This document shows positions 1 to 34,139 of a stretch of 36,345 bases of DNA, piece after piece. Within the stretch, counting starts at the first letter, position 1; each line of letters begins with the position of its first letter. The translations under genes and the position numbers were made by a program. Where the stretch lies: positions 1 to 36,345 of the forward strand of contig CAYNAV010000004.1 in assembly GCA_964395405.1 (NCBI GenBank), in the 5' to 3' direction. The notes below the pieces were generated by a model. It worked only from the letters and a program-made list of their open reading frames with translations, was not told the DNA's origin and made no database searches. Origin of the DNA: Candidatus Woesearchaeota archaeon. GTDB taxonomy: Archaea; Nanobdellota; Nanobdellia; Pacearchaeales; GW2011-AR1.

Positions 1-3000
1 ATATTTGTATTCATTTTATTTGGGATTATTTTGGCTGGGGGGGTTGGGGCGACTGCTCCTAGCTGGGGTAGTTCTTCCACTATAAATTACACCGCTATTG
101 AAGGGGTCAGTTATTATCATAATCTCAGCAGCAATATTACGGGTTTTAATAATGATGTAACTTTTGCTATAGATACTACGCCGCCAAATTATTATATTTA
201 TTGGACTACTTCAAATGGTCGGAGTTCTGTTTCTGTTGCAACTATTTCTTCATGGATTAATATTACTAATTCATCATCTGGCAACTTAACAATTAATGCA
301 AGATATGACAATCAAACTGGTTTTTTTGAGATTCCCATTCAGGCAAAAAATATTACTGATGATTCTGCCACAACAGAAGTTTTTGAGTTCATAATAAATG
401 CAACAAACGATGCGCCTAATTTTACATCTGCTGTTAACAGCAGTTATAGTGTTCCCATAAGCTCGGGTAACTATTCATTAAATCTTTATGCAACAGACGA
501 GGAGATGCATTATCCCCTTGCATTTAATTATACGGTCTATAATTGTAGTGTTTCTAGTTTAAGCACAAGATACAACTCAACAGGAGACGATAATTGTACT
601 TTAACAATCTCAAATGCTACATTATCTCAAACATCTTATCAGATAAATCTTACAGGCTTGACAAGTAATGATATGGGGGTTTATAATTTAAGTGTTTGCG
701 TAATGGATAATGCAACTGCTAATGTTTCGAGGATTCCTTTGTATGCTGATGCAAGTTATAATGACACTAAGTTTACATGTAAAAATATTAAACTAAATAT
801 CCAGTCTGCTTTGACGATTACTTCCAATTGTTCTGGATTAAATTTGACCGAAGATGGTATTTTGGGCTGTAGGATTAATGTTAGTACCAAAGGGGAGAGC
901 GACAATTTAATTTTATGGAGCAACGCTTCGTTGAGAGGGTATACTGCTTTGTCCGGAGCATTTAATCAAAGTTGGTTTTACTTTTATAATGCTTCTTCTG
1001 CTGAAAACTTCTTTTATTATGTTGATATTAATGTATCCCTTGATAAATTAAAAGTGGGAAACTGGTCCATTAATTTTACTGTTAATGATACAACTTCTTC
1101 AGAGGTTGGTTCAGCATTGTTTTATATCTATGTTAACTGGTCTGGAACTAATTCACTTCCTGCAATGACGTCTATTTCTAACATTAACAATTTATCAGTT
1201 AATTATTTTAAAGAGATTTATTTTAATGTTTCGGATAATGATATTATTGTTCCAGATAAAAATGTGAGAAATGAGACCTTTAATTATTCTTATACTGTTC
1301 TTAATCAAACAGATTTATCAGTGTTAGCTAATTTTAGCAGTGATTTTAATTTTTCTAGAATTGGAGATGTTGCAGGAACTAACAAAACTAGAATGAAGAT
1401 ATTATTCACGCCTAATTCTAGCGAGGCAGGTAATTATACTATTAATGTAACTGCAACCGATAGTTTTGGAGAGGTAACTTTTTCTTTGTTTAATGTCTCT
1501 ATTTTGAGCAATAGCGCTCCTCAATGGAATAGCAGTGTTAATTATGTTTTTAATTTAAATACAAGTACTGTGGCAGGTGACGAGAGCTTTAGATTTACAT
1601 TAAATCTCACAAATGCTTCTGGATTGGCTTATGCTTTCGATAATGAGTTGGATGAAATTAGTTTTACAAATGGTTCTGCATTTACTCATTTTAATCTTTC
1701 TAACGGTGTTATTAATTTTATCCCGTGGAAGCAAGATATTGGCTCTTGGAATATTAGCATTACTGCTACAGATACGCTTGGTCTGACTAATACAACTTAT
1801 TTTATTTTTAATATAAGCAATAATAATACTTCTCCGAAGATTATCTCTTTGACTTCCAATGATGACGAATCCCCGATAACAAATGGAAGCAGTGTTACTT
1901 GGGCAGAAGATGCTATTTTGACTTTTGAGTTGAGTATCAATGATACTGATTTATTAATTATAAATAAAAGTGTCTATAATGAATCTTTGAATGTTGATAT
2001 GGTTGTTGCATATCTAAATGGGACTGCTGTTTCTGATTTTTTTAACTTTAACTTTAATTCGAATAGCAGTGAAAACCAGACTTTCCTAGGAAGCTTTACA
2101 CCCGCTGCGAGTCAAATTGGGAATTATAGTGTTGTACTTAGTGTGACGGACAATAGCAGTGCCGTTGCATATCTTAATTTTAATGTTAATATAACATCTA
2201 CAGCTGACGCTCCGAATTTATCTTTAATTTCAAATCAATTTAAAACAACAAATGAGGCTCTTTATTTAGATATCAATGCGACTGATGAAGAAGATGGTAG
2301 TGATAGCTCTGGGAATTTAGTCTTTGCGATTTATAACTTAACTGCTGGAGGGAATTTCATTAATTCTTCTAATTTTAACTCTACTACTGGTGTTATTAAT
2401 CTGACAAGCCTTGAGGGATATGCTGGGCTTTGGACGTTTAATGTAACAGTTAATGATACTAATAATGATACTGATTCACAAGAGTTCAATATTACAATTT
2501 ATGGCCCTTATAGCTTGACATCTCCTTCTGAGGAAGATGTTTTTAACTTTACTGAAAATATAGCAGATAATTTTAGTTTCGCATTAAATCATTCCGTCGG
2601 AGATAACTTGACTTATGAGTTGTGGATGAATAATATTACCTGTTCTTATCAAAATAATTCTAATTGTACTTATTCCAATATGAGCTTAGTACAGTCTGCA
2701 AATAATTCTGGAAATGGGAGTTTATTTAACTGGAGTTTTACACCGAGCTACTGGGACGAGACTTATGGAAATTATAAAAATCTGACCTTGAGAGTTTATC
2801 CAGCAACATTGGAATTGAATTCAACACAAAAAACTTTGATTTCACAGAACTTTACATTTTATCTTAATATTAGTCATACTAATTATCCTGTTGTTGTTGT
2901 GCAGAATATTCCAAATCCTTATTCCAGCACGACTTATGGTTCAACTACCCCGATTACTATTGATTTAACTTCTTATTTTAGAGATATAGACTATCTAGAT

Positions 3001-3954
3001 GGTTATTATCTGCAAGATGTTATATTCAATATAACTACAAATGTCTCGAATAGCATTGTTCGAGCTGAGAGTTACGAGACGGCTAATCGATTGCCTTGGA
3101 ACGGCACAATTAGTGATTGGAGTTTGCAATTATATGGGGAAGAAGCAGGATCAGAGCAGATTACGATTGTTGCAAATGATTCTAATAGCTCTTCCACAAA
3201 TGGGCCATTTACAGTTACATTTACCGCTCCAAGCACAACCCCTGTGGCAACCCCCACATCTAGTGGAGGAGGAGGAAGTAGTATTAAACATTATTCATTA
3301 AGAATAATTACTCCTGCAGATATTATTGTTTCAGAGAACAATTTTATTTCAGTTCCGTTTTCGGTTGAGAATAATGGAGAAATAGATCTTGCAGGAATAA
3401 ATCTGAGCACGATGGTCTTTTATGAAAATTTATTTTCCGATGCAGTTAGTATTTCTCTTGAAGATGCATATATAGACAAACTTGGTTTTGGGCAGTCAAA
3501 AAATTTTACAATGACTATTCGTGCAAATACTCATGTCGCAGGAAAGTATAAGGCGACTGTTTATGCAGATATTACTTCTCCAAAGTTTTCAGATTGGGGA
3601 GATTTTTATATTGAGTTAAGAAAAACAAATGAATCAGAAGCAGAGCAGATGCTATTATTTACTGAGAAACTTATTTCGGAAAATCCAAAGTGTATAGAAC
3701 TTACCGAGTTGCTTAATGAGGCACGAAAGCTGTTGGACAATGCAGATTATAGCGCTTCTTTTCAAAAATCAAAAGAGGCACTTAATGCTTGTGAAAATGC
3801 AATATCCTCAAATGAGCAAGTTAATTATAGGACTGGAGAAACGCAAGATTTATTTACATATATAGGATACAGTACTTTGGTTGTATTTGGAATTGGTTTT
3901 ATTTTTTATATTTATAAAAGAGTAAGGTTTAATAAATCAAAAATCAATGACTAG
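1..3954 (+). CDS. Large cell-surface glycoprotein/adhesin with cadherin/Ig-like repeats and C-terminal TM anchor (5' partial)
   Basis: The frame is open from base 1 (IFVFILFGIILAGGVGA, a signal-peptide h-region), so the true start lies left of the window. Very dense N-x-S/T sequons, repeated beta modules (NDAPNF, NSAPQW, ADAPNL, ATDEED), a PSTTPVATPTSSGGGG linker, a CARDB-like domain (VENNGEIDL), then a TM helix and basic tail (YIGYSTLVVFGIGFIFYIYKRVR). Confidence 0.8.
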   Translation: MFVFILFGIILAGGVGATAPSWGSSSTINYTAIEGVSYYHNLSSNITGFNNDVTFAIDTTPPNYYIYWTTSNGRSSVSVATISSWINITNSSSGNLTINARYDNQTGFFEIPIQAKNITDDSATTEVFEFIINATNDAPNFTSAVNSSYSVPISSGNYSLNLYATDEEMHYPLAFNYTVYNCSVSSLSTRYNSTGDDNCTLTISNATLSQTSYQINLTGLTSNDMGVYNLSVCVMDNATANVSRIPLYADASYNDTKFTCKNIKLNIQSALTITSNCSGLNLTEDGILGCRINVSTKGESDNLILWSNASLRGYTALSGAFNQSWFYFYNASSAENFFYYVDINVSLDKLKVGNWSINFTVNDTTSSEVGSALFYIYVNWSGTNSLPAMTSISNINNLSVNYFKEIYFNVSDNDIIVPDKNVRNETFNYSYTVLNQTDLSVLANFSSDFNFSRIGDVAGTNKTRMKILFTPNSSEAGNYTINVTATDSFGEVTFSLFNVSILSNSAPQWNSSVNYVFNLNTSTVAGDESFRFTLNLTNASGLAYAFDNELDEISFTNGSAFTHFNLSNGVINFIPWKQDIGSWNISITATDTLGLTNTTYFIFNISNNNTSPKIISLTSNDDESPITNGSSVTWAEDAILTFELSINDTDLLIINKSVYNESLNVDMVVAYLNGTAVSDFFNFNFNSNSSENQTFLGSFTPAASQIGNYSVVLSVTDNSSAVAYLNFNVNITSTADAPNLSLISNQFKTTNEALYLDINATDEEDGSDSSGNLVFAIYNLTAGGNFINSSNFNSTTGVINLTSLEGYAGLWTFNVTVNDTNNDTDSQEFNITIYGPYSLTSPSEEDVFNFTENIADNFSFALNHSVGDNLTYELWMNNITCSYQNNSNCTYSNMSLVQSANNSGNGSLFNWSFTPSYWDETYGNYKNLTLRVYPATLELNSTQKTLISQNFTFYLNISHTNYPVVVVQNIPNPYSSTTYGSTTPITIDLTSYFRDIDYLDGYYLQDVIFNITTNVSNSIVRAESYETANRLPWNGTISDWSLQLYGEEAGSEQITIVANDSNSSSTNGPFTVTFTAPSTTPVATPTSSGGGGSSIKHYSLRIITPADIIVSENNFISVPFSVENNGEIDLAGINLSTMVFYENLFSDAVSISLEDAYIDKLGFGQSKNFTMTIRANTHVAGKYKATVYADITSPKFSDWGDFYIELRKTNESEAEQMLLFTEKLISENPKCIELTELLNEARKLLDNADYSASFQKSKEALNACENAISSNEQVNYRTGETQDLFTYIGYSTLVVFGIGFIFYIYKRVRFNKSKIND

Positions 3955-26009: not shown

Positions 26010-27758
26010 TTAATCCAATATAGCTTTAATTCTTCTTACACCTTGAGAAGATGATTCTTCTTTTGTAATTTTGAAATGTCCTAGCTCTGAAAGATGAGAG
26101 ACATGGGGGCCTGCACAAATTTCTTTGCTGAACTTTCCAATGCTATAGACTTTAACTTTGTCTCCATATTTACTGTCAAAAATGCCTTGAGCGCCTTGTT
26201 TTTTTGCTTCATCAACAGTCATTTCTTCAACTTTAACCTTGAGATCGTTTTTTATCTCTTTATTAATTAAGTCTTCAATTTGTTTTATCTCTTCTGGAGT
26301 TAGTTTTCTATCAAAATTAAAATCAAATCTTAATCTTTCTGTGGTAATGTTGCTTCCTTTTTGGTGGATGTCTAGATTTTTTAGAACCATTCTTAGCGCT
26401 TGGTTTAATAAATGACATGCTGTATGAAGGCGAGTTGTTGCTTCGCTGTTGTCTGCAAGACCTGATTTGTACTGGCCGGCTGATGCTGTCCTACTTAGCT
26501 CTTGGTGCTCTTTGTTTGCTTGTTCAAATCCTTTTAAATCAACTTTAATGTTTTTCTCTTTTGCTAATTCTTCAGTCATTTCTATTGGGAAACCATAGCT
26601 TTGGTATAATAGGAATGCTTCTTTTCCTGAAATTGCTTTCTTGTCTTTTGCAACTTTATCGAATTCTTTCATTCCCTGTTCAATCGTTTTCATAAAGTTA
26701 TCTTCTTCTTTTTTTAATTCTAGGAGGATTTGGCCTTTGTTATCCTGTAAAACTTCATAGTCATCATAAATCCCAAAAACAGGAATTGCAATGTCTTGAG
26801 TAAAGTTTTCAATTCCTAAAAGTCTTCCATATCGTATTGCTCTCCTTATTAGTCTTCTTAATACGTATCCTCTTTCTGAATTGCTTGGAACTACGCCGTC
26901 TGCAATTATAAAAACAGAAGCTTTAATGTGGTCTGCTATTATTCTCATTGCTTTTTCATTTCCTTTATATGTTTTTTTTGAAATTTTTTCTATTTGACTT
27001 ATTATTGGTATCCACATATCAGCCAGATAATTATCTTCTAACCCTGTTAGTGTTGCAATTGTTCTTTCAACTCCTCCGCCAAAGTCAATGTTCTTTTGTT
27101 TTGCGAGATTGAATTTTCCCATATCCTCCTTGAGATATTGCATTAAAACATCATTTCCAATCTCGACCCAATTTTTATCATCTGGATTAAATGTCTTTGG
27201 TGCTGGTTTTGAATTAGTCTTCCAATAGAATTGTTCTGTACATGGGCCGCATGGTCCAGTGTTACCTGCTGGACCCCACCAGTTATCTTCTTCTAAAAAT
27301 GCTATTCTGTCTTTTGAGATTCCTAAAGATTCCCAGGTCTTTGCAGATTCTTCATCTTTTTCTGCATTTTTATTTCCAGAAAAGCAACTTACTGCATATC
27401 TTTCTAGTGGAATACCGAGAATTTTAGTGTGGAATTCGAATGTGAATTGAATCGCTTCTTTTTTAAAATAATCTCCTAACGACCAATTACCAAGCATTTC
27501 AAAGAGAGTATGGTGGTAAGTATCGCCTACATCTTCTATATCTCCGGTTCTAATACATCTTTGAACATTTACAAGCCTTTTTCCAAGTGGATGTTTTTCT
27601 CCTAGAAGGAATGGAACTATAGGGTGCATTCCTGCCGTGGTAAATAGAACTGTAGGATCGTTTGCAGGGACTAAGGAAGAGTTTGGTATTTCCTTATGTC
27701 CTTTTGATTTGAAAAATTCTATATATTTATTTATTAATTGTTTTCTGTTTATTTTCAT
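26010..27758 (-). CDS. alaS: Alanine--tRNA ligase (short form, no C-Ala domain)
   Basis: LFTTAGM, QRCIRTGD, FEMLGNWSLGDYFK, GPCGPCTE, RIIADH, GYVLRRLIRRA; editing motifs HTACH and CAGPH; ends at GVRRIKAILD. Confidence 0.97.
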   Translation of the reverse strand: MKINRKQLINKYIEFFKSKGHKEIPNSSLVPANDPTVLFTTAGMHPIVPFLLGEKHPLGKRLVNVQRCIRTGDIEDVGDTYHHTLFEMLGNWSLGDYFKKEAIQFTFEFHTKILGIPLERYAVSCFSGNKNAEKDEESAKTWESLGISKDRIAFLEEDNWWGPAGNTGPCGPCTEQFYWKTNSKPAPKTFNPDDKNWVEIGNDVLMQYLKEDMGKFNLAKQKNIDFGGGVERTIATLTGLEDNYLADMWIPIISQIEKISKKTYKGNEKAMRIIADHIKASVFIIADGVVPSNSERGYVLRRLIRRAIRYGRLLGIENFTQDIAIPVFGIYDDYEVLQDNKGQILLELKKEEDNFMKTIEQGMKEFDKVAKDKKAISGKEAFLLYQSYGFPIEMTEELAKEKNIKVDLKGFEQANKEHQELSRTASAGQYKSGLADNSEATTRLHTACHLLNQALRMVLKNLDIHQKGSNITTERLRFDFNFDRKLTPEEIKQIEDLINKEIKNDLKVKVEEMTVDEAKKQGAQGIFDSKYGDKVKVYSIGKFSKEICAGPHVSHLSELGHFKITKEESSSQGVRRIKAILD

Positions 27759-27782
27759 ATTTTGAATAGGTTTGCTGGGTTT

Positions 27783-28778
27783 TTAAGAATTATGTATCTT
27801 AAGAAGATTGCCAAAACCCGGAGTCCAAATATCAGTCATCATTAAAACAGTATCAACGGACTTTATTACTTTTGAGAATTCTTTTTTTAAATTCTCAATT
27901 AGATTGTAATACTCTTGAAAATTTGAGACTACAAGTTCTATTTCTATTTGAGCTAGATTCCTAATAAAATACTGAATGTTTGGCAGATTTGAAGCGTATT
28001 CAAAAAGCTTTTTTTCGTCTTCTTTATTGTATCGCTCTAGTCTAATAATTGCTTTGTAAAGTTCGGAGCCTATAAGATTAAGATTAATTCCTGTCCTAAA
28101 CTGAATAATAATTCCTTTTTCTTGTAACTTTTTTATTTTATTCGAGACAATAATCTCGGTTGATTTTACATTTTTAGCTAATTCAACAATGGATATCCTC
28201 GCATTATTAACGATCTCTTCTAATATTCTTGAGTCTAGTTCATCAATCTTGTTATTTACAATTTCTCCTGCAAACATTGTTGGTTTTTCTATCTTTCCAG
28301 TAAAATACATTTTTGGATACTGTTTAACATCAACCAGAATTCCATCTTCAGAATCAATGATAATATGGTTGAATCGAGAGATAAAATCATTTCTTAACTC
28401 ATAAAAATCGTAATCATTTTTTGCAAAAAAGGAGAATATAAGGTCCCATGAGCCAGAACATTCTCCAAGCCAGTAAACCCTACAGGACCTATTCAAATAA
28501 TTAAATAATTTTTCCTTTTCAGGAGGAATATTCCTTAATTTTACATAGATCTTATAGGCTTTATATCCTATTTTATGAGGATTGATTGCTGTATTAAAGC
28601 TTGTTATTATACCTTTTTCAACTAAATTGTTTATTCGGTATTCAACTGCTTGTCTTGATTTATTGACCTTCTTAGCCAACTGAGTTGATGGGATCCTACA
28701 GTTTTTGTCAAGTTCTGCAAGTATCTTTAAATCAATCTTGTCTAGTTTAATTCCATTTATATTATTCATTGTTAGCAT
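27783..28778 (-). CDS. Tandem (double) Lrp/AsnC-family transcriptional regulator
   Basis: Two HTH+RAM units: LDKIDLKILAELDKNCRIPSTQLAKKV...RINNLVEKGII and IDELDSRILEEIVNNARISIVELAKNV...KIKKLQEKGII. Confidence 0.92.
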   Translation of the reverse strand: MLTMNNINGIKLDKIDLKILAELDKNCRIPSTQLAKKVNKSRQAVEYRINNLVEKGIITSFNTAINPHKIGYKAYKIYVKLRNIPPEKEKLFNYLNRSCRVYWLGECSGSWDLIFSFFAKNDYDFYELRNDFISRFNHIIIDSEDGILVDVKQYPKMYFTGKIEKPTMFAGEIVNNKIDELDSRILEEIVNNARISIVELAKNVKSTEIIVSNKIKKLQEKGIIIQFRTGINLNLIGSELYKAIIRLERYNKEDEKKLFEYASNLPNIQYFIRNLAQIEIELVVSNFQEYYNLIENLKKEFSKVIKSVDTVLMMTDIWTPGFGNLLKIHNS

Positions 28779-28844
28779 AAACTATCTTAGATTTATAAAT
28801 ATTACTATTTATGCTCAAAAATCTGAAGAAACTTTGATATATCC

Positions 28845-28879
28845 GTTACTCTTAGTATTATTAACTTACAAGGAGTAAC
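28845..28879. promoter_or_regulatory. Inverted repeat in the Lrp / radical SAM divergent promoter region
   Basis: GTTACTCTT-N17-AGGAGTAAC (8 of 9 complementary); the right arm contains the SD-like AGGAG. Confidence 0.5.
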
Positions 28880-28881
28880 AA

Positions 28882-30402
28882 ATGATAAACACAAATACAC
28901 AACAGATGAAAGAAAGACTAGAAGCACTTCAGATTCCTATAGTTTACAATGTATTTCCACAAGATTTCCAATTAGATGTAAACGGATGGTCTTTCCCGGA
29001 TGATAAGGATAAACCCACAATTGATGTTGAGCTTAGTTTAGAAGAAATAGCAGAACTAGAAAGTAAGGGGTTTTTAGGGAAGATAAATCAGGTTTCAGAT
29101 AGATCATATCAAATAAAAAGATTAAGAACTTTAGACATAGAAATTGCTCCAGACGAAGTAATTGATGAAATGAATGCTTTGGCTGAAGAAAAAGATGCTT
29201 CAAGTTTAGATTTGCAATTGAAGTTTGGGAGATTATATAGAAAAACTTGTACTCAGAGGTGCCCTCATTGTTTTAATCAGGAAGATGATTTTTATGTAAG
29301 CAAGATTATTTCAGATCAAAAATTAATGAGGTGGGCTGAAACAAATGAAGTTATTCAAAAGGCCAAAAAATTAGGATTAGAATCTGTTAAATTTTTAGGA
29401 ATTGGAGAATTTTTTAAGAATCCGAGATTATTCCATATACTCGATGAATTACAAGGAGAAGGAATTAAAGCAGGCATATTCACTAAGGGTTCTGCATTGG
29501 GAGATGATTTAATTGCAAGGAATTGTGGTTATGATGGAATTAATAATGCAGAAGACTTGGTTAAAAGGTTAGCAGGTTACGATAATGTTAGTGTACTTTT
29601 AGGTGCAAATTCATTTAATCCTCAACTACAAGATGAAATGGTTGGATGTGGTCAGGATTCACAATGTGTAAAAGACTACACCATTGCAAGAAATAAAGCA
29701 TTGCAACTTTTAGTAAAATATAGATTTAATGATCCTTCTAAAGGAAAAAGACTTGCTTTAATCGCTGCACCAGTAACTCCTCAGGCAAGTGATGAAACTG
29801 TTGAGATGTACGAATGGGGGATGAGGAGAAACATTCCAGTAATTACAATTCCTACTATGGTTAGTGGGAAAGGAAAAAATGAATTAGAATGGTTGCTTAA
29901 CCAATTTGAAACAGATTCTAATCTTGTAGATAGATTTGATCCCAAAAGAGAAATGACTCGGGAGAAAAGATATACTGAATGGCTTACTGATTTTTACACA
30001 GATGTATACTCTAAAGCAATTGATATGGGCATAACTACTATAGAGAAAATAAATCTGGACGGAATTTCGGGATATGCAGGAACTGCTCAATGCCAGCAAA
30101 AGCAAAATGGAATGTATCTTAGATTGCCCGGCACAGTTCAAGAATGTCCTGGAAGATGTGTAGGGGCAGAAATAACTGGAGATATAAGAAAAACAGGACT
30201 ATTATCTACTTGGATTGGAAGTCGAAATTATGATAGAAAAAAAGATTGTAATTCTTTATGTGCTGTAAAGATGAAAGACTTAACTGGAAGTGGAGAAAAA
30301 CCTTGTGATTGTTGTGAAGTCTATGAGAATGTAGGTTCAATGCCTCCTGAGTTAGGTTCAAGAGTCATAGAAAAACTAAATCAAAAATATGGGACAAAAT
30401 AA
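28882..30402 (+). CDS. Radical SAM protein with C-terminal Twitch/SPASM-like Cys-rich domain
   Basis: CTQRCPHC (CxxxCxxC), FLGIGEFF (GGE-like), IFTKG; C-terminal CQQKQNGMYLRLPGTVQECPGRC...CNSLC...CDCC. Confidence 0.9.
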   Translation: MINTNTQQMKERLEALQIPIVYNVFPQDFQLDVNGWSFPDDKDKPTIDVELSLEEIAELESKGFLGKINQVSDRSYQIKRLRTLDIEIAPDEVIDEMNALAEEKDASSLDLQLKFGRLYRKTCTQRCPHCFNQEDDFYVSKIISDQKLMRWAETNEVIQKAKKLGLESVKFLGIGEFFKNPRLFHILDELQGEGIKAGIFTKGSALGDDLIARNCGYDGINNAEDLVKRLAGYDNVSVLLGANSFNPQLQDEMVGCGQDSQCVKDYTIARNKALQLLVKYRFNDPSKGKRLALIAAPVTPQASDETVEMYEWGMRRNIPVITIPTMVSGKGKNELEWLLNQFETDSNLVDRFDPKREMTREKRYTEWLTDFYTDVYSKAIDMGITTIEKINLDGISGYAGTAQCQQKQNGMYLRLPGTVQECPGRCVGAEITGDIRKTGLLSTWIGSRNYDRKKDCNSLCAVKMKDLTGSGEKPCDCCEVYENVGSMPPELGSRVIEKLNQKYGTK

Positions 30403-30403
30403 A

Positions 30404-30841
30404 ATGACAAAAAACTTAAGCATATTATTGGGAGATGATGAAATGGGTCCAGCCACTCAATCAGTTTTTGAACAAGAATTTACTCCAAGATTGCAAAGAG
30501 CACTTCCAAATTATCAGATTAATTGGCATTATGAAATGCTTCCTCAAAGGGTGATTGATGAAGCAAGAACTGGGAGATATGATTTAGTTGTGACTGATTT
30601 AGATTATTCTGATTTTGGAGACAGAAGTCACAAAGATGGATATCGAATAATTGACGCGGTTTGTACAATGAATCCAAAACCACTACTTATTCTCTGCACT
30701 TCAACAAAAGATAATCCTGAAATGGAACAGAGGACAAAAGGAAAGATTAATTTTAAGGTTGGCGGGGGAAACAATCATAAGTTTTCAGATTTAATTGATA
30801 AACTAATAGAACATTTTCAAATGAAAGAAGGTAATAAATAA
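30404..30841 (+). CDS. Stand-alone receiver (CheY-like) domain protein
   Basis: ILLGDDE acidic pocket, YDLVVTDLD phospho-acceptor Asp, DGYRII, ILCTS switch Thr/Ser; ATG 30404 chosen because it follows the upstream stop as TAA-A-ATG (track start 30389). Confidence 0.82.
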   Translation: MTKNLSILLGDDEMGPATQSVFEQEFTPRLQRALPNYQINWHYEMLPQRVIDEARTGRYDLVVTDLDYSDFGDRSHKDGYRIIDAVCTMNPKPLLILCTSTKDNPEMEQRTKGKINFKVGGGNNHKFSDLIDKLIEHFQMKEGNK

Positions 30842-30842
30842 A

Positions 30843-31601
30843 ATGGCAGAAGAAAATCTTGAAGAAGAAGTAGAAGCAAGAATCTATAGGGGCAATCGTA
30901 GTGAGTGGCCATGGAACATGTTTGAAAGAAAAGTATTTATAAGATTTCCTGGAAGAGTGATGATTGAGTATAAGGTGACTGAATTTAGGGATGACGCAAA
31001 AGATAAGGCTCATCGGCAACTTGGAGAACTTGCAGATTTAAAGCAACCGCCCCATGGTTTATTAAGAACGGCGGAGGCCGATGCGTTTGGTGTTTATAGA
31101 GATGATAAATTTTCTGAAAAGAGAGAAGACAAAGATTTATTTTCTTATAGGATTAGTCTTATTGGTACAAGTACAAGCGCGGTTCTGATTGCAACCCCAA
31201 AAGTTCCAAAAGATTTAGTAGATACTATTGAAAGGGAATATTTTGGTAAGGTTTCCTCCTCTCTTGATTTAAGACATGCGATAATTTCTGTAGCAAATCA
31301 ATCAGTTATTCAATCATGTAATCGTGTCCAGACTTTATGTAGAGAAGCAGAGAGTGGAAAACTCGCCCCATTGATTAAAGCAAATATCTTTAATGCTTAT
31401 TATAATTTTCCTGCTATAGCTGCTGCTGAACAGGTTATGTCTACTGCTATATCCGATTATGAAAAAAATGCTGTTGAATTTGTCAAAGCAATGAAGCAGT
31501 TACATGATTGCTATGCTGCTATGTGGTTAAGGAAGGCGCTAGGGAAAGCAGATGATAGTGGAAGTTTACCAGAATATTACGGAGTTTTAGATAAAGATTA
31601 A
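30843..31601 (+). CDS. Hypothetical protein, third gene of the radical SAM operon
   Basis: 252-aa ORF with a TAA-A-ATG junction to the receiver gene; no family recognised. Confidence 0.8.
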   Translation: MAEENLEEEVEARIYRGNRSEWPWNMFERKVFIRFPGRVMIEYKVTEFRDDAKDKAHRQLGELADLKQPPHGLLRTAEADAFGVYRDDKFSEKREDKDLFSYRISLIGTSTSAVLIATPKVPKDLVDTIEREYFGKVSSSLDLRHAIISVANQSVIQSCNRVQTLCREAESGKLAPLIKANIFNAYYNFPAIAAAEQVMSTAISDYEKNAVEFVKAMKQLHDCYAAMWLRKALGKADDSGSLPEYYGVLDKD

Positions 31602-31622
31602 AGAGAACCAGGAATATTTTAC

Positions 31623-31997
31623 TTACCCATTCAATCTCTTTAACTTATCCTGGATTTCTTGAAGTTCTTCATCCACATTAGCCATTCTTCTGTCTTCCTC
31701 TGTGAAGACAAACTTCTTTGGATGAAACTCTTTATGGGTTTCGTGATGGGTTTCTCTTATTAACTTTGTTTTAGGCATTTCTGGAAGCTTTTCATCCATC
31801 TTATCAAAATTATCGTTAAGGTCTTCAATAATGCTGTTTAATTCTTGCTTCAGTTTGTTTTTTTTATTTCTTAATTTTTGAATTTTGTATAGTTGTTTAA
31901 TTAAACTAAGAAGTGCAATCTGGGTACTAAGCAAAAAAGTATTTCCATTTTTAAACTCTTCAGGTTCCATGGAGATATACAGTTTTTCGTCTTTCAT
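31623..31997 (-). CDS. Hypothetical coiled-coil protein
   Basis: 124 aa with heptad-rich segments; 9 nt downstream of the next gene on the same strand. Confidence 0.75.
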   Translation of the reverse strand: MKDEKLYISMEPEEFKNGNTFLLSTQIALLSLIKQLYKIQKLRNKKNKLKQELNSIIEDLNDNFDKMDEKLPEMPKTKLIRETHHETHKEFHPKKFVFTEEDRRMANVDEELQEIQDKLKRLNG

Positions 31998-32006
31998 TTT
32001 TTAGAT

Positions 32007-32546
32007 TCAAATTTTTCCAAAAATCGTATTATCAATTTGAATTAGTCTGGATTTGATTTCTTCTAAATTTCTTGTCCAATCTTCTATTTCTTTGTTCTCT
32101 TTTGCGCTAATTTCTTTTATTCTACTGATAACGTTGTCAATTTCTCTTATTTTTTTCTTCATATCTTCAAAATCTTTTTGAGCTGCTTGAAATTTATCAA
32201 CTCTTATAAATATCGGACTTTTTGATGCGGGCATCATTTGCATTTGATGTGTTGGTTTGTCTCTCTCAATGTTTAATTCTGGTATCTTTTCAGAAGCAGA
32301 ATCGCTGAGGGACATTGAATAATCCCTCGGCAATTCCTCGACTATCACCTCGTCGTCTCCAGAAGAGTATGAATCATCAGATGAAACAGCAGATTTTACT
32401 ATATCACGATTAAAATTTTCACTTTTATTAGATGAAGGGAACGATGGAAGTTCATTTAATGCTCTTTTAGGGGGTTCTGGCAATTCTGGGAGCTGAGAAA
32501 TTCGAGGAATTTCGGGAACTTTTTCTTTTTTTGTAAATAGGCCCAT
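32007..32546 (-). CDS. Hypothetical protein with Pro-rich disordered N-terminus and C-terminal coiled coil
   Basis: MGLFTKK..PELPEPP..; PIFIRVDKF followed by a long helix. Confidence 0.78.
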   Translation of the reverse strand: MGLFTKKEKVPEIPRISQLPELPEPPKRALNELPSFPSSNKSENFNRDIVKSAVSSDDSYSSGDDEVIVEELPRDYSMSLSDSASEKIPELNIERDKPTHQMQMMPASKSPIFIRVDKFQAAQKDFEDMKKKIREIDNVISRIKEISAKENKEIEDWTRNLEEIKSRLIQIDNTIFGKI

Positions 32547-32647
32547 AGTTACTTTTGAGGAGTTTTGTTTTTATACCTTTATATTAATTTAAAAATGACG
32601 ACAAAAAAAAGCGAAAAGTATTTAATACGATTATTTTAAAGTTAATA

Positions 32648-33442
32648 ATGGTAACTTCTAAAAAAAAGATAACTTCTCAACAAAAGGCTACATCTACTCA
32701 AGTTTCTAAGAAGGAACAAATAAGGCTTCTAGAGGGACTTGTTGAAGAATTAGCCGGGATTGAGTCTGGTAAGATAGTCGATATTTTATTTAATAAAAGA
32801 GATGTTAATGAATTCTTCATTGCAAAAAAGATGAATCTTACAATAAACCAAGTTAGAAATATTTTGTATAAACTTTCTGCGCAGGGTTTGGTTTCATTTA
32901 TAAGAAAAAAAGATAGAAAGAAGGGCTGGTATATTTATTATTGGACTCTTGATACTGAAAAATGCCTCATCAAGCTTGAACAGTCTATCTTAGCTAAGAT
33001 TGGGAAGTTTAATGCTCAACTTGAAAAAAGAGAAACAAGGAGATATTATATTTGTCCTTCTTGCCATATAGAAGTTAATGAAGAGACTGCCTTGGAACAT
33101 AATTTCTCTTGTGAAGAGTGTGCGGAGATTTATGTTTTGGCTGATAATGAGAAACCAATTAAGGAAATAAAATTGAACATTGCTAAAGCAGAGAAGGGTT
33201 TAAAGATTATCCAGGTAGAGTTGATGGATGATAGGTCAAAGAAGGCAAAAAAGAGAGCAAAGACAGAAAAAAAGGAAGAAGCTTTGATAAAAAAAGAGAA
33301 AGACCAAAAAAAAGCCGAAAAGAAAAAATTGAGGGAGAAAAATAAAAAACCTGCTAAGGATAAAAAACAGGTTAAGGATAAAAAAATTACTAAAAAAATT
33401 TCTGTGAAAAAGAAAATAAACAAAAAGTCTAAAAAGAAGTAG
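32648..33442 (+). CDS. tfe: Transcription factor E (TFE alpha) with Lys-rich tail
   Basis: wHTH INQVRNILYKL...RKKDRKKGWYIYYW and zinc ribbon YICPSC...FSCEEC. Confidence 0.92.
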   Translation: MVTSKKKITSQQKATSTQVSKKEQIRLLEGLVEELAGIESGKIVDILFNKRDVNEFFIAKKMNLTINQVRNILYKLSAQGLVSFIRKKDRKKGWYIYYWTLDTEKCLIKLEQSILAKIGKFNAQLEKRETRRYYICPSCHIEVNEETALEHNFSCEECAEIYVLADNEKPIKEIKLNIAKAEKGLKIIQVELMDDRSKKAKKRAKTEKKEEALIKKEKDQKKAEKKKLREKNKKPAKDKKQVKDKKITKKISVKKKINKKSKKK

Positions 33443-33470
33443 TTTCTTCTATTTGAGAGTTAATATAAAA

Positions 33471-34139
33471 ATGAGAAAAGGAATACTTTCAACATATACT
33501 GCTTGGATTATTATTGCTAATATTGTTGCGTTCTTTTTGTTTTCGATTTTTATTTCTATATATGGTGGGGATGCAGGTGTTTCTTATTTTGCACTTCAGC
33601 CCGCTTCTATTTTAGCGGGGCAAAAACTTTGGACTTTTTTAACAAGTATGTTTTTGCATGCGAATCTTACTCATCTTTTGGTTAATATGCTTTCGTTGTT
33701 CTTTATCGGAACTTTTGTTGAAAAACTGATTGGGAAGAAGAGATACATTGCACTTTATTTTGGTGGAGGATTAGTTGCAGGAGTCTTCTTTGTTGCCTTG
33801 GCGGGATTGTTTGGAAATAGCGATTGGGGCATGAGGATCTTTGGTTCTCCTATGACTTATGCGGTGGGGGCTTCTGGAGCTATCTTTTGTTTAGGTGGTT
33901 TGCTTGCAATTTTGACTCCTCGGTTGCCTGTGTTGGTATTTTTTATATTGCCTATGCCTATGTGGATTGCAATGATTGGGCTTATGGCTGTCTTATGGCT
34001 TGCTTCATTTGCATTTTCTGCTAATATTGGGAATACGGCCCATCTCGGAGGTTTAGTTCTGGGAATTGGTTATGGTTTGTATTTAAAGTATAAATATCCG
34101 AGGAAGACGGCAATGATTTCTAGGTATTTTTCTAGATAA
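33471..34139 (+). CDS. Rhomboid family intramembrane serine protease
   Basis: WTFLTSMFLHANLTHLLVNM, catalytic GASGAI and AHLGG; ATG 33471 preferred over TTG 33453. Confidence 0.95.
   Translation: MRKGILSTYTAWIIIANIVAFFLFSIFISIYGGDAGVSYFALQPASILAGQKLWTFLTSMFLHANLTHLLVNMLSLFFIGTFVEKLIGKKRYIALYFGGGLVAGVFFVALAGLFGNSDWGMRIFGSPMTYAVGASGAIFCLGGLLAILTPRLPVLVFFILPMPMWIAMIGLMAVLWLASFAFSANIGNTAHLGGLVLGIGYGLYLKYKYPRKTAMISRYFSR

Follow-up and report, generated by a model that had tools for sequence, protein, structure and literature searches.

Among radical S-adenosylmethionine (rSAM) enzymes, the SPASM domain carries a seven-cysteine motif that includes CX2CX5CX3C, and Twitch is a truncated SPASM in which CX9-15GX4C plus further Cys residues bind one auxiliary cluster. 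The functional residues of receiver (REC) domains are an acidic pair, a phospho-acceptor Asp, a Thr/Ser and a Lys. Other rSAM/peptide conflict systems have been described (PMC7159879). Our literature searches found no paper linking radical SAM, Lrp and DPANN and none linking radical SAM, Nanoarchaeota, Patescibacteria and horizontal gene transfer, and a search on radical SAM, SPASM and the Candidate Phyla Radiation (CPR) returned nothing related, judging by its listing. Here, we analyzed a 36,345-nucleotide stretch of DNA from a Candidatus Woesearchaeota archaeon (contig CAYNAV010000004.1 of assembly GCA_964395405.1; "the window" below), in which a gene for a tandem Lrp/AsnC-type protein lies head-to-head with an operon encoding an rSAM enzyme, a stand-alone receiver-fold protein and p252, a protein of 252 amino acids (aa). 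The first-pass annotation of this DNA had proposed a single four-gene system. Its regulator-rSAM pair proved to be recurrent, whereas the receiver gene occurs at 3 of 14 loci and p252 has no relatives anywhere. As far as the related genomes indicate, the conserved unit is the pair of tandem Lrp and rSAM only, with the receiver an occasional member and p252 private to this genome.

The source genome (G000; other G numbers denote kin genomes) is about 1.0 Mb long, in 105 contigs, and 89% complete. A profile of the rSAM matched 24 of 401 sampled genomes of the same family, 14 of them strongly (at least 395 bits). At nine of these 14 strong-class loci, a regulator-type gene (profile A2) is a neighbor, directly head-to-head in seven (G000, G434, G169, G477, G418, G346, and G232) and with one gene in between in two (G189 and G121); the five loci with no such neighbor are those of G092, G186, G459, G195, and G460. 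The same type of neighbor was found at 10 of 13 weaker-class rSAM loci, and G155, which comes from an order-level sample, adds another regulator-rSAM pair. Within the source genome, which has 14 rSAM genes in its ~1 Mb, all three tandem-Lrp paralogs face rSAM genes, and these belong to different classes.

Across eight genomes, the regulator orthologs are 58 to 78% identical, while the rSAMs of G000, G169, and G434 are only 34 to 42% identical to the rest; those of G155, G232, G418, G346, and G477 are 63 to 83% identical to each other. A quick maximum-likelihood tree with SH-aLRT support only placed the window rSAM in a 100%-supported clade with bacterial long forms and the G434 rSAM with CPR-type proteins, both nested among archaeal lineages. 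The simplest reading of these sequences is that regulator and promoter have been conserved while the rSAM gene next to them was replaced repeatedly, with genes moving between domains.

The window rSAM is 56 to 69% identical to its closest relatives, a set of about 20 long-form proteins of bacterial (mostly Firmicutes) and metagenomic origin. Twelve genome loci of the long form came from six Lachnospiraceae, two Bacillota metagenome-assembled genomes (MAGs), Anaerobacterium, Eubacterium plexicaudatum, a Desulfopila MAG, and a partial Actinomycetota MAG. Second-tier relatives, ~31 to 39% identical and ~410 aa long, are labeled Patescibacteria/CPR where they are named, and the nearest archaeal cluster is assigned to Nanobdellota by automatic Atlas labels. 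No relative of the receiver or of p252 was detected in the 12 genome and 14 metagenome loci of the closest rSAMs (phmmer, E ≤ 1); at the same threshold, the one regulator relative among the rSAM-relative loci examined belongs to kin genome G004, where the rSAM next to it is a different one. The coupled neighbor of the bacterial long form is a metallo-β-lactamase (MBL)-fold hydrolase (L005, L006, and L009) or a YbaK-like deacylase domain (L004 and L008) in the Pfam-tested loci, and was called by open reading frame (ORF) size and position only in the remaining ones.

Some features of these neighborhoods stand apart from the window locus. About 200 bp upstream of bacterial long-form rSAM genes lies a conserved, charged ORF of 69 to 71 aa (L006 5524-5739, L007 1097-1312, L010 5494-5703, and L017 3491-3700), which adjoins an XRE-type helix-turn-helix (HTH) gene on the opposite strand and could encode a small regulator or a precursor. 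The long form is broken into two ORFs (378 + 150 aa) or shortened (318 aa; 286 + 157 aa) on contigs of some Lachnospiraceae and metagenomes, suggesting frameshifts or decay (L010 5977-7552, L017, and L018; L027-L029). By eye only, the rSAM homolog at G186:C4 (L043/L058) lies among genes resembling an AmmeMemoRadiSam set, flanked by a Memo-like ORF and two other Cys-rich rSAM-like ORFs.

The enzyme encoded in the window belongs to the radical SAM superfamily by its match to PF04055 (35.7 bits, against a cut-off of 29.5). Its CxxxCxxC motif (C123/C127/C130) is invariant in 24 aligned sequences, and so are C404, C422, and C460; the arrangement C404-x12-G417-x4-C422, invariant in the same alignment, is what we take to be a Twitch/SPASM signature. 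From C404 onwards, the protein has eight Cys residues (C404, C422, C426, C456, C460, C479, C481, and C482), in agreement with the count of at least seven made earlier. PF13186 (SPASM) gave no match in the window rSAM at E ≤ 0.01, and CX2CX5CX3C was not seen in the 24-sequence alignment; several shorter homologs, as well as 58% of the nearest Atlas cluster, do have PF13186 on record. The protein has an N-terminal GW-x-F region of its own, and the long form to which it belongs carries two additional inserts, one N-terminal and one C-terminal and rich in Cys. The enzyme belongs to no characterized family, and no curated NCBIfam model came near its cut-off: the viperin model NF038283 reached 18.4 of the 180 bits required, and the MoaA equivalog TIGR02666 16.7 of 284. 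The PADLOC pVip model reached 21.7 bits, over residues 121 to 213 only. A search made with the protein as a whole returned no PqqD/RRE (recognition element) match in Pfam, and sequence searches of the PDB gave only weak core matches.

The AlphaFold2 (AF2) model of the enzyme has a predicted local distance difference test (pLDDT) score of 89.6. Its nearest solved folds are those of SkfB (a Twitch enzyme; Z = 19.5), SuiB (18.4), CteB (17.4), ChlB (17.1), and anSME (16.7), and the small-molecule rSAM enzymes BlsE, viperin, and MoaA scored 16.0 to 16.4 (viperin, 16.4; MoaA, 16.2). Identity to all of these solved neighbors is at most 17% over 250 to 320 aligned residues.

The 331-aa protein on the other side of the spacer had been called a double Lrp/AsnC gene product, and two HTH_AsnC stretches were indeed found in it, at residues 12 to 52 and ~175 to 225 (PF13404, 74.8 bits). 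At E ≤ 0.01, a profile built from five orthologs matched 25 solved Lrp/AsnC regulators, whose full-length chains aligned with its positions 1 to 154, and none of its 35 PDB matches was a sirohaem decarboxylase chain even at E ≤ 10. The curated models of AhbA (19.7 bits; cut-off, 140) and AhbB (26.8 bits; cut-off, 125) fell far short, and the ALAD gene, a tetrapyrrole marker, was not found in the 89%-complete genome. For these reasons, we read the protein as a DNA-binding regulator and not as an enzyme of the Ahb/Nir type.

The wider tandem-Lrp family gave 46 matches, spread over 28 of the 61 kin genomes and numbering up to three per genome. At 25 of the 28 readable loci, the start-side neighbor is divergent, which is the layout expected of local regulators. 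One of the other two paralogs in the source genome is head-to-head with a 329-aa KamA-like rSAM (G000:C89:157-2203, L084) that scored 117 to 121 bits, below cut-off, with models of glutamate/lysine 2,3-aminomutase; KamA is an amino-acid aminomutase family. The other (G000:C7, L087 3447-6329) is head-to-head with a 464-aa rSAM that comes after a 126-aa ORF belonging to no family. At L136 (G322:C1) 2512-3493, a tandem Lrp is divergent from a PTPS (QueD-like) gene and a 228-aa rSAM, which look like a QueD-QueE pair.

The spacer between the regulator and rSAM genes aligns across eight genomes with a mean column identity of 65% and contains invariant blocks. It has two TATA-like boxes, an imperfect inverted repeat after the rSAM-side box and AAGGAG 8 nt before the rSAM ATG; we infer that the spacer is a candidate operator region. 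The motif TTATGCTCAAAAA occurs in the genome only in this spacer. The pattern GTTACT..AGTAA has seven matches genome-wide, equal to five distinct sites (two palindromes were counted on both strands), and no clear regulon emerged from them. A scan for sigma-70 promoters stayed at shuffle level, the sigma-70 model being inapplicable to archaea.

The receiver scores below threshold for PF00072 (15.7 bits, against a cut-off of 30.2), and the label given to it at first was borne out by the predicted fold. The AF2 model (pLDDT 91.4) has five strands and helices, and the top rows of a Foldseek search against the PDB were nearly all REC domains (probability 1.00, with template modeling [TM] scores of 0.53 to 0.66 for the REC rows). 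D11, D12, D65, and T99 do not vary and one Lys is retained, giving the acidic pair, the Asp of TDLDY, and the Thr of LCTS; the model also shows an extra helix in the α1 region and a long β3 loop. Two starts are possible, at 30389 (150 aa) or 30404 (145 aa), and since homologs begin at the second ATG, we assign the gene to 30404-30841. A search of the 89%-complete genome for histidine kinases found none, the sole match to PF02518 (HATPase_c) being a 634-aa GyrB/TopoVI-like ORF.

Receiver-family genes occur in 15 of the 401 same-family genomes. Of the 14 strong-class kin genomes, three have such a gene next to the rSAM. It lies downstream of the enzyme gene in G000 and G169 but upstream of it in G477, and the three represent different rSAM lineages; the other 11 archaeal strong-class loci lack it. 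In the high-scoring LCTS subgroup, three of four genes adjoin an rSAM, and the rSAM-linked receivers have a Cys before the conserved Thr where other receivers have His or Tyr. Some members occur away from rSAMs. The gene that comes after a receiver-family gene is a different one each time and belongs to no family, and the 14 proteins encoded beside receiver-family genes, p252 included, share no mutual similarity (phmmer, E ≤ 1). A scan of viral contigs found no receiver homologs. The first-pass annotation had made the co-occurrence of the receiver and p252 genes with rSAM homologs its touchstone; the receiver does co-occur, at the three loci named, and p252 has no homolog. A second, weaker receiver-fold paralog of 129 aa (PF00072, 22.9 bits; G000:C3:256-1727, L081) is flanked by family-less genes of 236 and 126 aa and lies next to a P-loop ATPase-like ORF.

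Described from the start as belonging to no recognizable family, p252 matched only itself in a word-index search over 5.8 billion and a full HMMER search over 1.84 billion representatives; no credible match was found in 300 kin genomes (best E, 0.0036), and none in Pfam, NCBIfam, PADLOC, or PHROGs. The 252-aa product of the gene that follows the receiver homolog of G228 was considered as a relative and rejected (BLASTP, E = 0.19). The Atlas model of p252 is poor (pLDDT 0.34), and structure matches had TM scores of at most 0.40. It is very likely a real gene, because a 759-nt frame stays open in 33%-GC DNA, is start-coupled, and shows ordinary codon use. Its link to the rSAM is one of position alone.

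Both the four ORFs with their head-to-head spacer and the identical TAA-A-ATG junctions between rSAM and receiver and between receiver and p252 were present as annotated earlier, and so was the position of the block between alaS and convergent genes (Table 1). The window, with a GC content of ~33%, also encodes TFE, and its alaS is a short bacterial-type one.

Table 1. Features of the locus and its borders (positions within the window)
Feature	Position	Strand	Length and evidence
Tandem (single-chain double) Lrp/AsnC-type protein, read as a transcription regulator	27783..28778	-	331 aa; PF13404, ortholog profile
Shared divergent promoter region, candidate operator	28779..28881	.	103 bp; alignment across 8 genomes
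rSAM enzyme, long form of an uncharacterized Twitch/SPASM-like family	28882..30402	+	506 aa; PF04055
Stand-alone receiver (REC)-fold protein	30404..30841	+	145 aa; AF2 model, Foldseek
ORFan gene p252	30843..31601	+	252 aa; only self-matches; translational coupling with the receiver gene
alaS, bordering the insertion on the left	26010..27758	-	NF002436, 760 bits; 24 bp past the regulator stop
p124 and p179, core genes, right border of the insertion	31623..32546	-	Synteny in kin

The gene p179 is present in 47 of the 61 kin genomes, and p179-p124-alaS is uninterrupted in 22 of 29 kin loci; other genes intervene in five, and two loci are cut. Neither a regulator nor an rSAM lies between p124 and alaS in any of the 29. 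The module was found at the alaS/p124 site only in G000 and G155, whose regulator-alaS junctions are alike, and the syntenic G155 locus contains the regulator and the rSAM without the receiver and without the ORFan. Because p124 directly adjoins alaS in 22 of 29 kin loci, the block is an accessory module inserted between these two genes. The first annotation had guessed as much; synteny upholds the guess, composition and codon use being ordinary. Relative to 769 genome ORFs of at least 150 aa, every composition z-score of the block falls inside ±1.6, and codon fit ranges from average to good (92nd, 96th, and 58th percentiles for rSAM, receiver, and p252, respectively). The first two plus-strand genes, which had been thought unusually A-rich, reach only the 63rd (rSAM) and 68th (receiver) percentiles in A fraction. 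No flanking direct repeats, inverted repeats, or tRNA were found at the block borders.

On the right of the block (31623-34139), p179-p124-alaS with the divergent TFE and a rhomboid-like gene make up a core arrangement that is conserved in this order; p124 and p179 are charged, coiled-coil-like proteins with no family. In two of four runs examined, contigs of lake-water reads join position 27749 to 31639 and skip 3889 bases. This signal is weak, the shorter side of the joint having only 30 letters at an 85% likeness threshold, and it fits a co-occurring relative without the block.

On balance, we favor the view that the locus is an accessory, exchangeable, regulator-linked rSAM module with two promoters, whose enzyme acts on a small metabolite. 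The tandem Lrp/AsnC protein would bind the shared promoter region and, in response to a small ligand, switch the divergent operon. The first product of that operon, the rSAM, would have one Twitch/SPASM-type auxiliary cluster; it comes from an uncharacterized family with a patchy distribution in DPANN-type archaea, CPR bacteria, and Firmicutes. We would commit to the guess that its substrate is a small metabolite, probably amino-acid-like or host-derived, and not a ribosomal peptide; a metabolite substrate would fit because 11 of 14 archaeal rSAM loci have no conserved co-operonic partner. Regulator and promoter may form a conserved "socket" behind which different rSAM types are exchanged, the slot here holding the long form shared with Firmicutes. 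The receiver-fold protein could join the enzyme occasionally, as an accessory partner or modulator, and p252 could be a lineage-specific addition. Several observations weigh against this model. The RAM domain (PF01037) had no match in the window regulator at E ≤ 0.01, although it does match both tandem-Lrp paralogs of the same genome. In an unbiased wider sample of tandem-Lrp loci, an rSAM was in the divergent operon at only 4 of 29, so the regulator family is not rSAM-specific and the pairing is enriched, not universal. The maturases SkfB, SuiB, CteB, ChlB, and anSME rank slightly above the small-molecule enzymes in Z, and the kin genomes behind our counts are not independent of each other, many being 60 to 90% complete.

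That ranking of folds is the starting point for an alternative we regard as doubtful, the one put forward in the first-pass annotation, in which the rSAM is a protein or peptide maturase that modifies the receiver (for example, at the Cys of LCTS) or p252 to yield a modified signaling or effector protein. Its nearest folds are maturases of proteins or of ribosomally synthesized and post-translationally modified peptides, the three operon genes are translationally coupled, and a receiver gene adjoins the rSAM in three separate lineages, as do most LCTS-subgroup genes. Small-molecule enzymes, however, lie within ~3 Z units of the maturases, the receiver is missing at 11 of 14 archaeal and all 26 bacterial or metagenomic rSAM loci, and p252 is unique to the source genome; no precursor ORF fits the 103-bp spacer, and the PqqD/RRE search was negative. 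A more elaborate proposal strikes us as improbable: the rSAM would covalently modify the kinase-less receiver in place of phosphorylation, and the receiver would then act on a rapidly replaced effector such as p252, with Twitch cassettes interchangeable in the Lrp socket and traded with CPR and Firmicutes. The sparse distribution of both downstream genes could also mean that they are unrelated passengers with no functional link to the rSAM; the ORFan has no relatives, the syntenic G155 locus is free of both, and receiver-family genes are also found away from rSAMs. We consider this unlikely, given that receiver-rSAM adjacency recurs in three rSAM lineages and that the one-base TAA-A-ATG coupling of all three genes argues against chance.

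Patchiness of the enzyme itself, with the strong class in 14 of 401 family genomes, recalls the defense module suggested in the first-pass annotation, an anti-virus or conflict system in which the rSAM would make a toxic or chain-terminating nucleotide, as viperin does, or another effector, under a sensor regulator and with a variable downstream effector gene. Exchange of the rSAM between domains, the unrelated, family-less gene after each receiver-family gene, and the Z score of the viperin fold all fit such a system, but its viperin models remain far below threshold, the pVip match covers the cluster-binding stretch only, and the rSAM family has a conserved three-Cys auxiliary site, which viperins are not known to have. 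No defense family was matched in PADLOC or PHROGs and no neighboring defense genes were seen in the loci read, so that a role in defense seems quite unlikely. Least probable of all, in our judgment, is that the tandem Lrp is no regulator and instead assists the rSAM as a partner enzyme or chaperone, in the way that the Lrp-fold sirohaem decarboxylases AhbA/B and NirDL work with the rSAM enzymes AhbC, AhbD, or NirJ. Lrp-fold enzymes in a pathway with rSAMs have a precedent (PMC4145669); NirDL-like domains are fused to an rSAM in one Atlas cluster (TM score, 0.52), and the weaker-class rSAMs beside tandem Lrps have their best matches in NirJ/AhbD models, at 81.6 bits against a cut-off of 500. 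The failed AhbA/AhbB models, the 25 true regulators and no decarboxylase among the PDB matches, and the ALAD result stand against such a partnership, as does the gene order, which is head-to-head and not co-operonic.

If the locus is the regulated rSAM module that we favor, it bears on how DPANN archaea and CPR bacteria live: their genomes are tiny, so regulated accessory chemistry that is retained hints at life off hosts. An uncharacterized rSAM family common to DPANN, CPR, and gut Firmicutes would sit here behind a dedicated conserved regulator and would have been swapped several times. Its substrate, once found, would give a function to a family without a curated model and would also reveal whether kinase-less receivers in these archaea serve radical enzymes as partners or as substrates. 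For such tests, the 103-bp candidate operator region and the confidently modeled enzyme offer concrete material.

Compared with the systems described so far, the window rSAM shares with Twitch/SPASM enzymes (SkfB, SuiB, CteB, and anSME; BtrN/MoaA type) the CxxxCxxC core, the C-x12-G-x4-C auxiliary-cluster motif, and the nearest folds (Z = 16 to 19.5), but it is at most 17% identical to solved chains; the full seven-Cys SPASM pattern was not seen in it, and no precursor peptide or RRE was found at its locus. The receiver resembles CheY-like single-domain response regulators in its REC fold and conserved acidic-pocket residues and differs from them in its subthreshold Pfam score, its additional α1-region helix and long β3 loop, and its coupling to an rSAM gene in a genome in which no histidine kinase was found. 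With the AhbA/B-AhbC/D and NirDL-NirJ systems, the locus has in common an Lrp-fold protein genomically tied to a SPASM-type rSAM, whereas the Ahb/Nir models fail here, no tetrapyrrole marker was found, and the genes are divergent. The regulator is closest to archaeal Lrp/AsnC regulators such as LrpA, FL11/PH1519, and PH0140, with which it appears to share the architecture of HTH plus effector domain (full-length profile matches, E = 2e-17 to 1e-10) and, with those that control a divergent neighbor, the head-to-head layout, here with a conserved spacer. It departs from them in having what appear to be two complete units fused in one chain of ~330 aa and in belonging to a tandem-Lrp family that is expanded in kin genomes and enriched beside rSAM genes.

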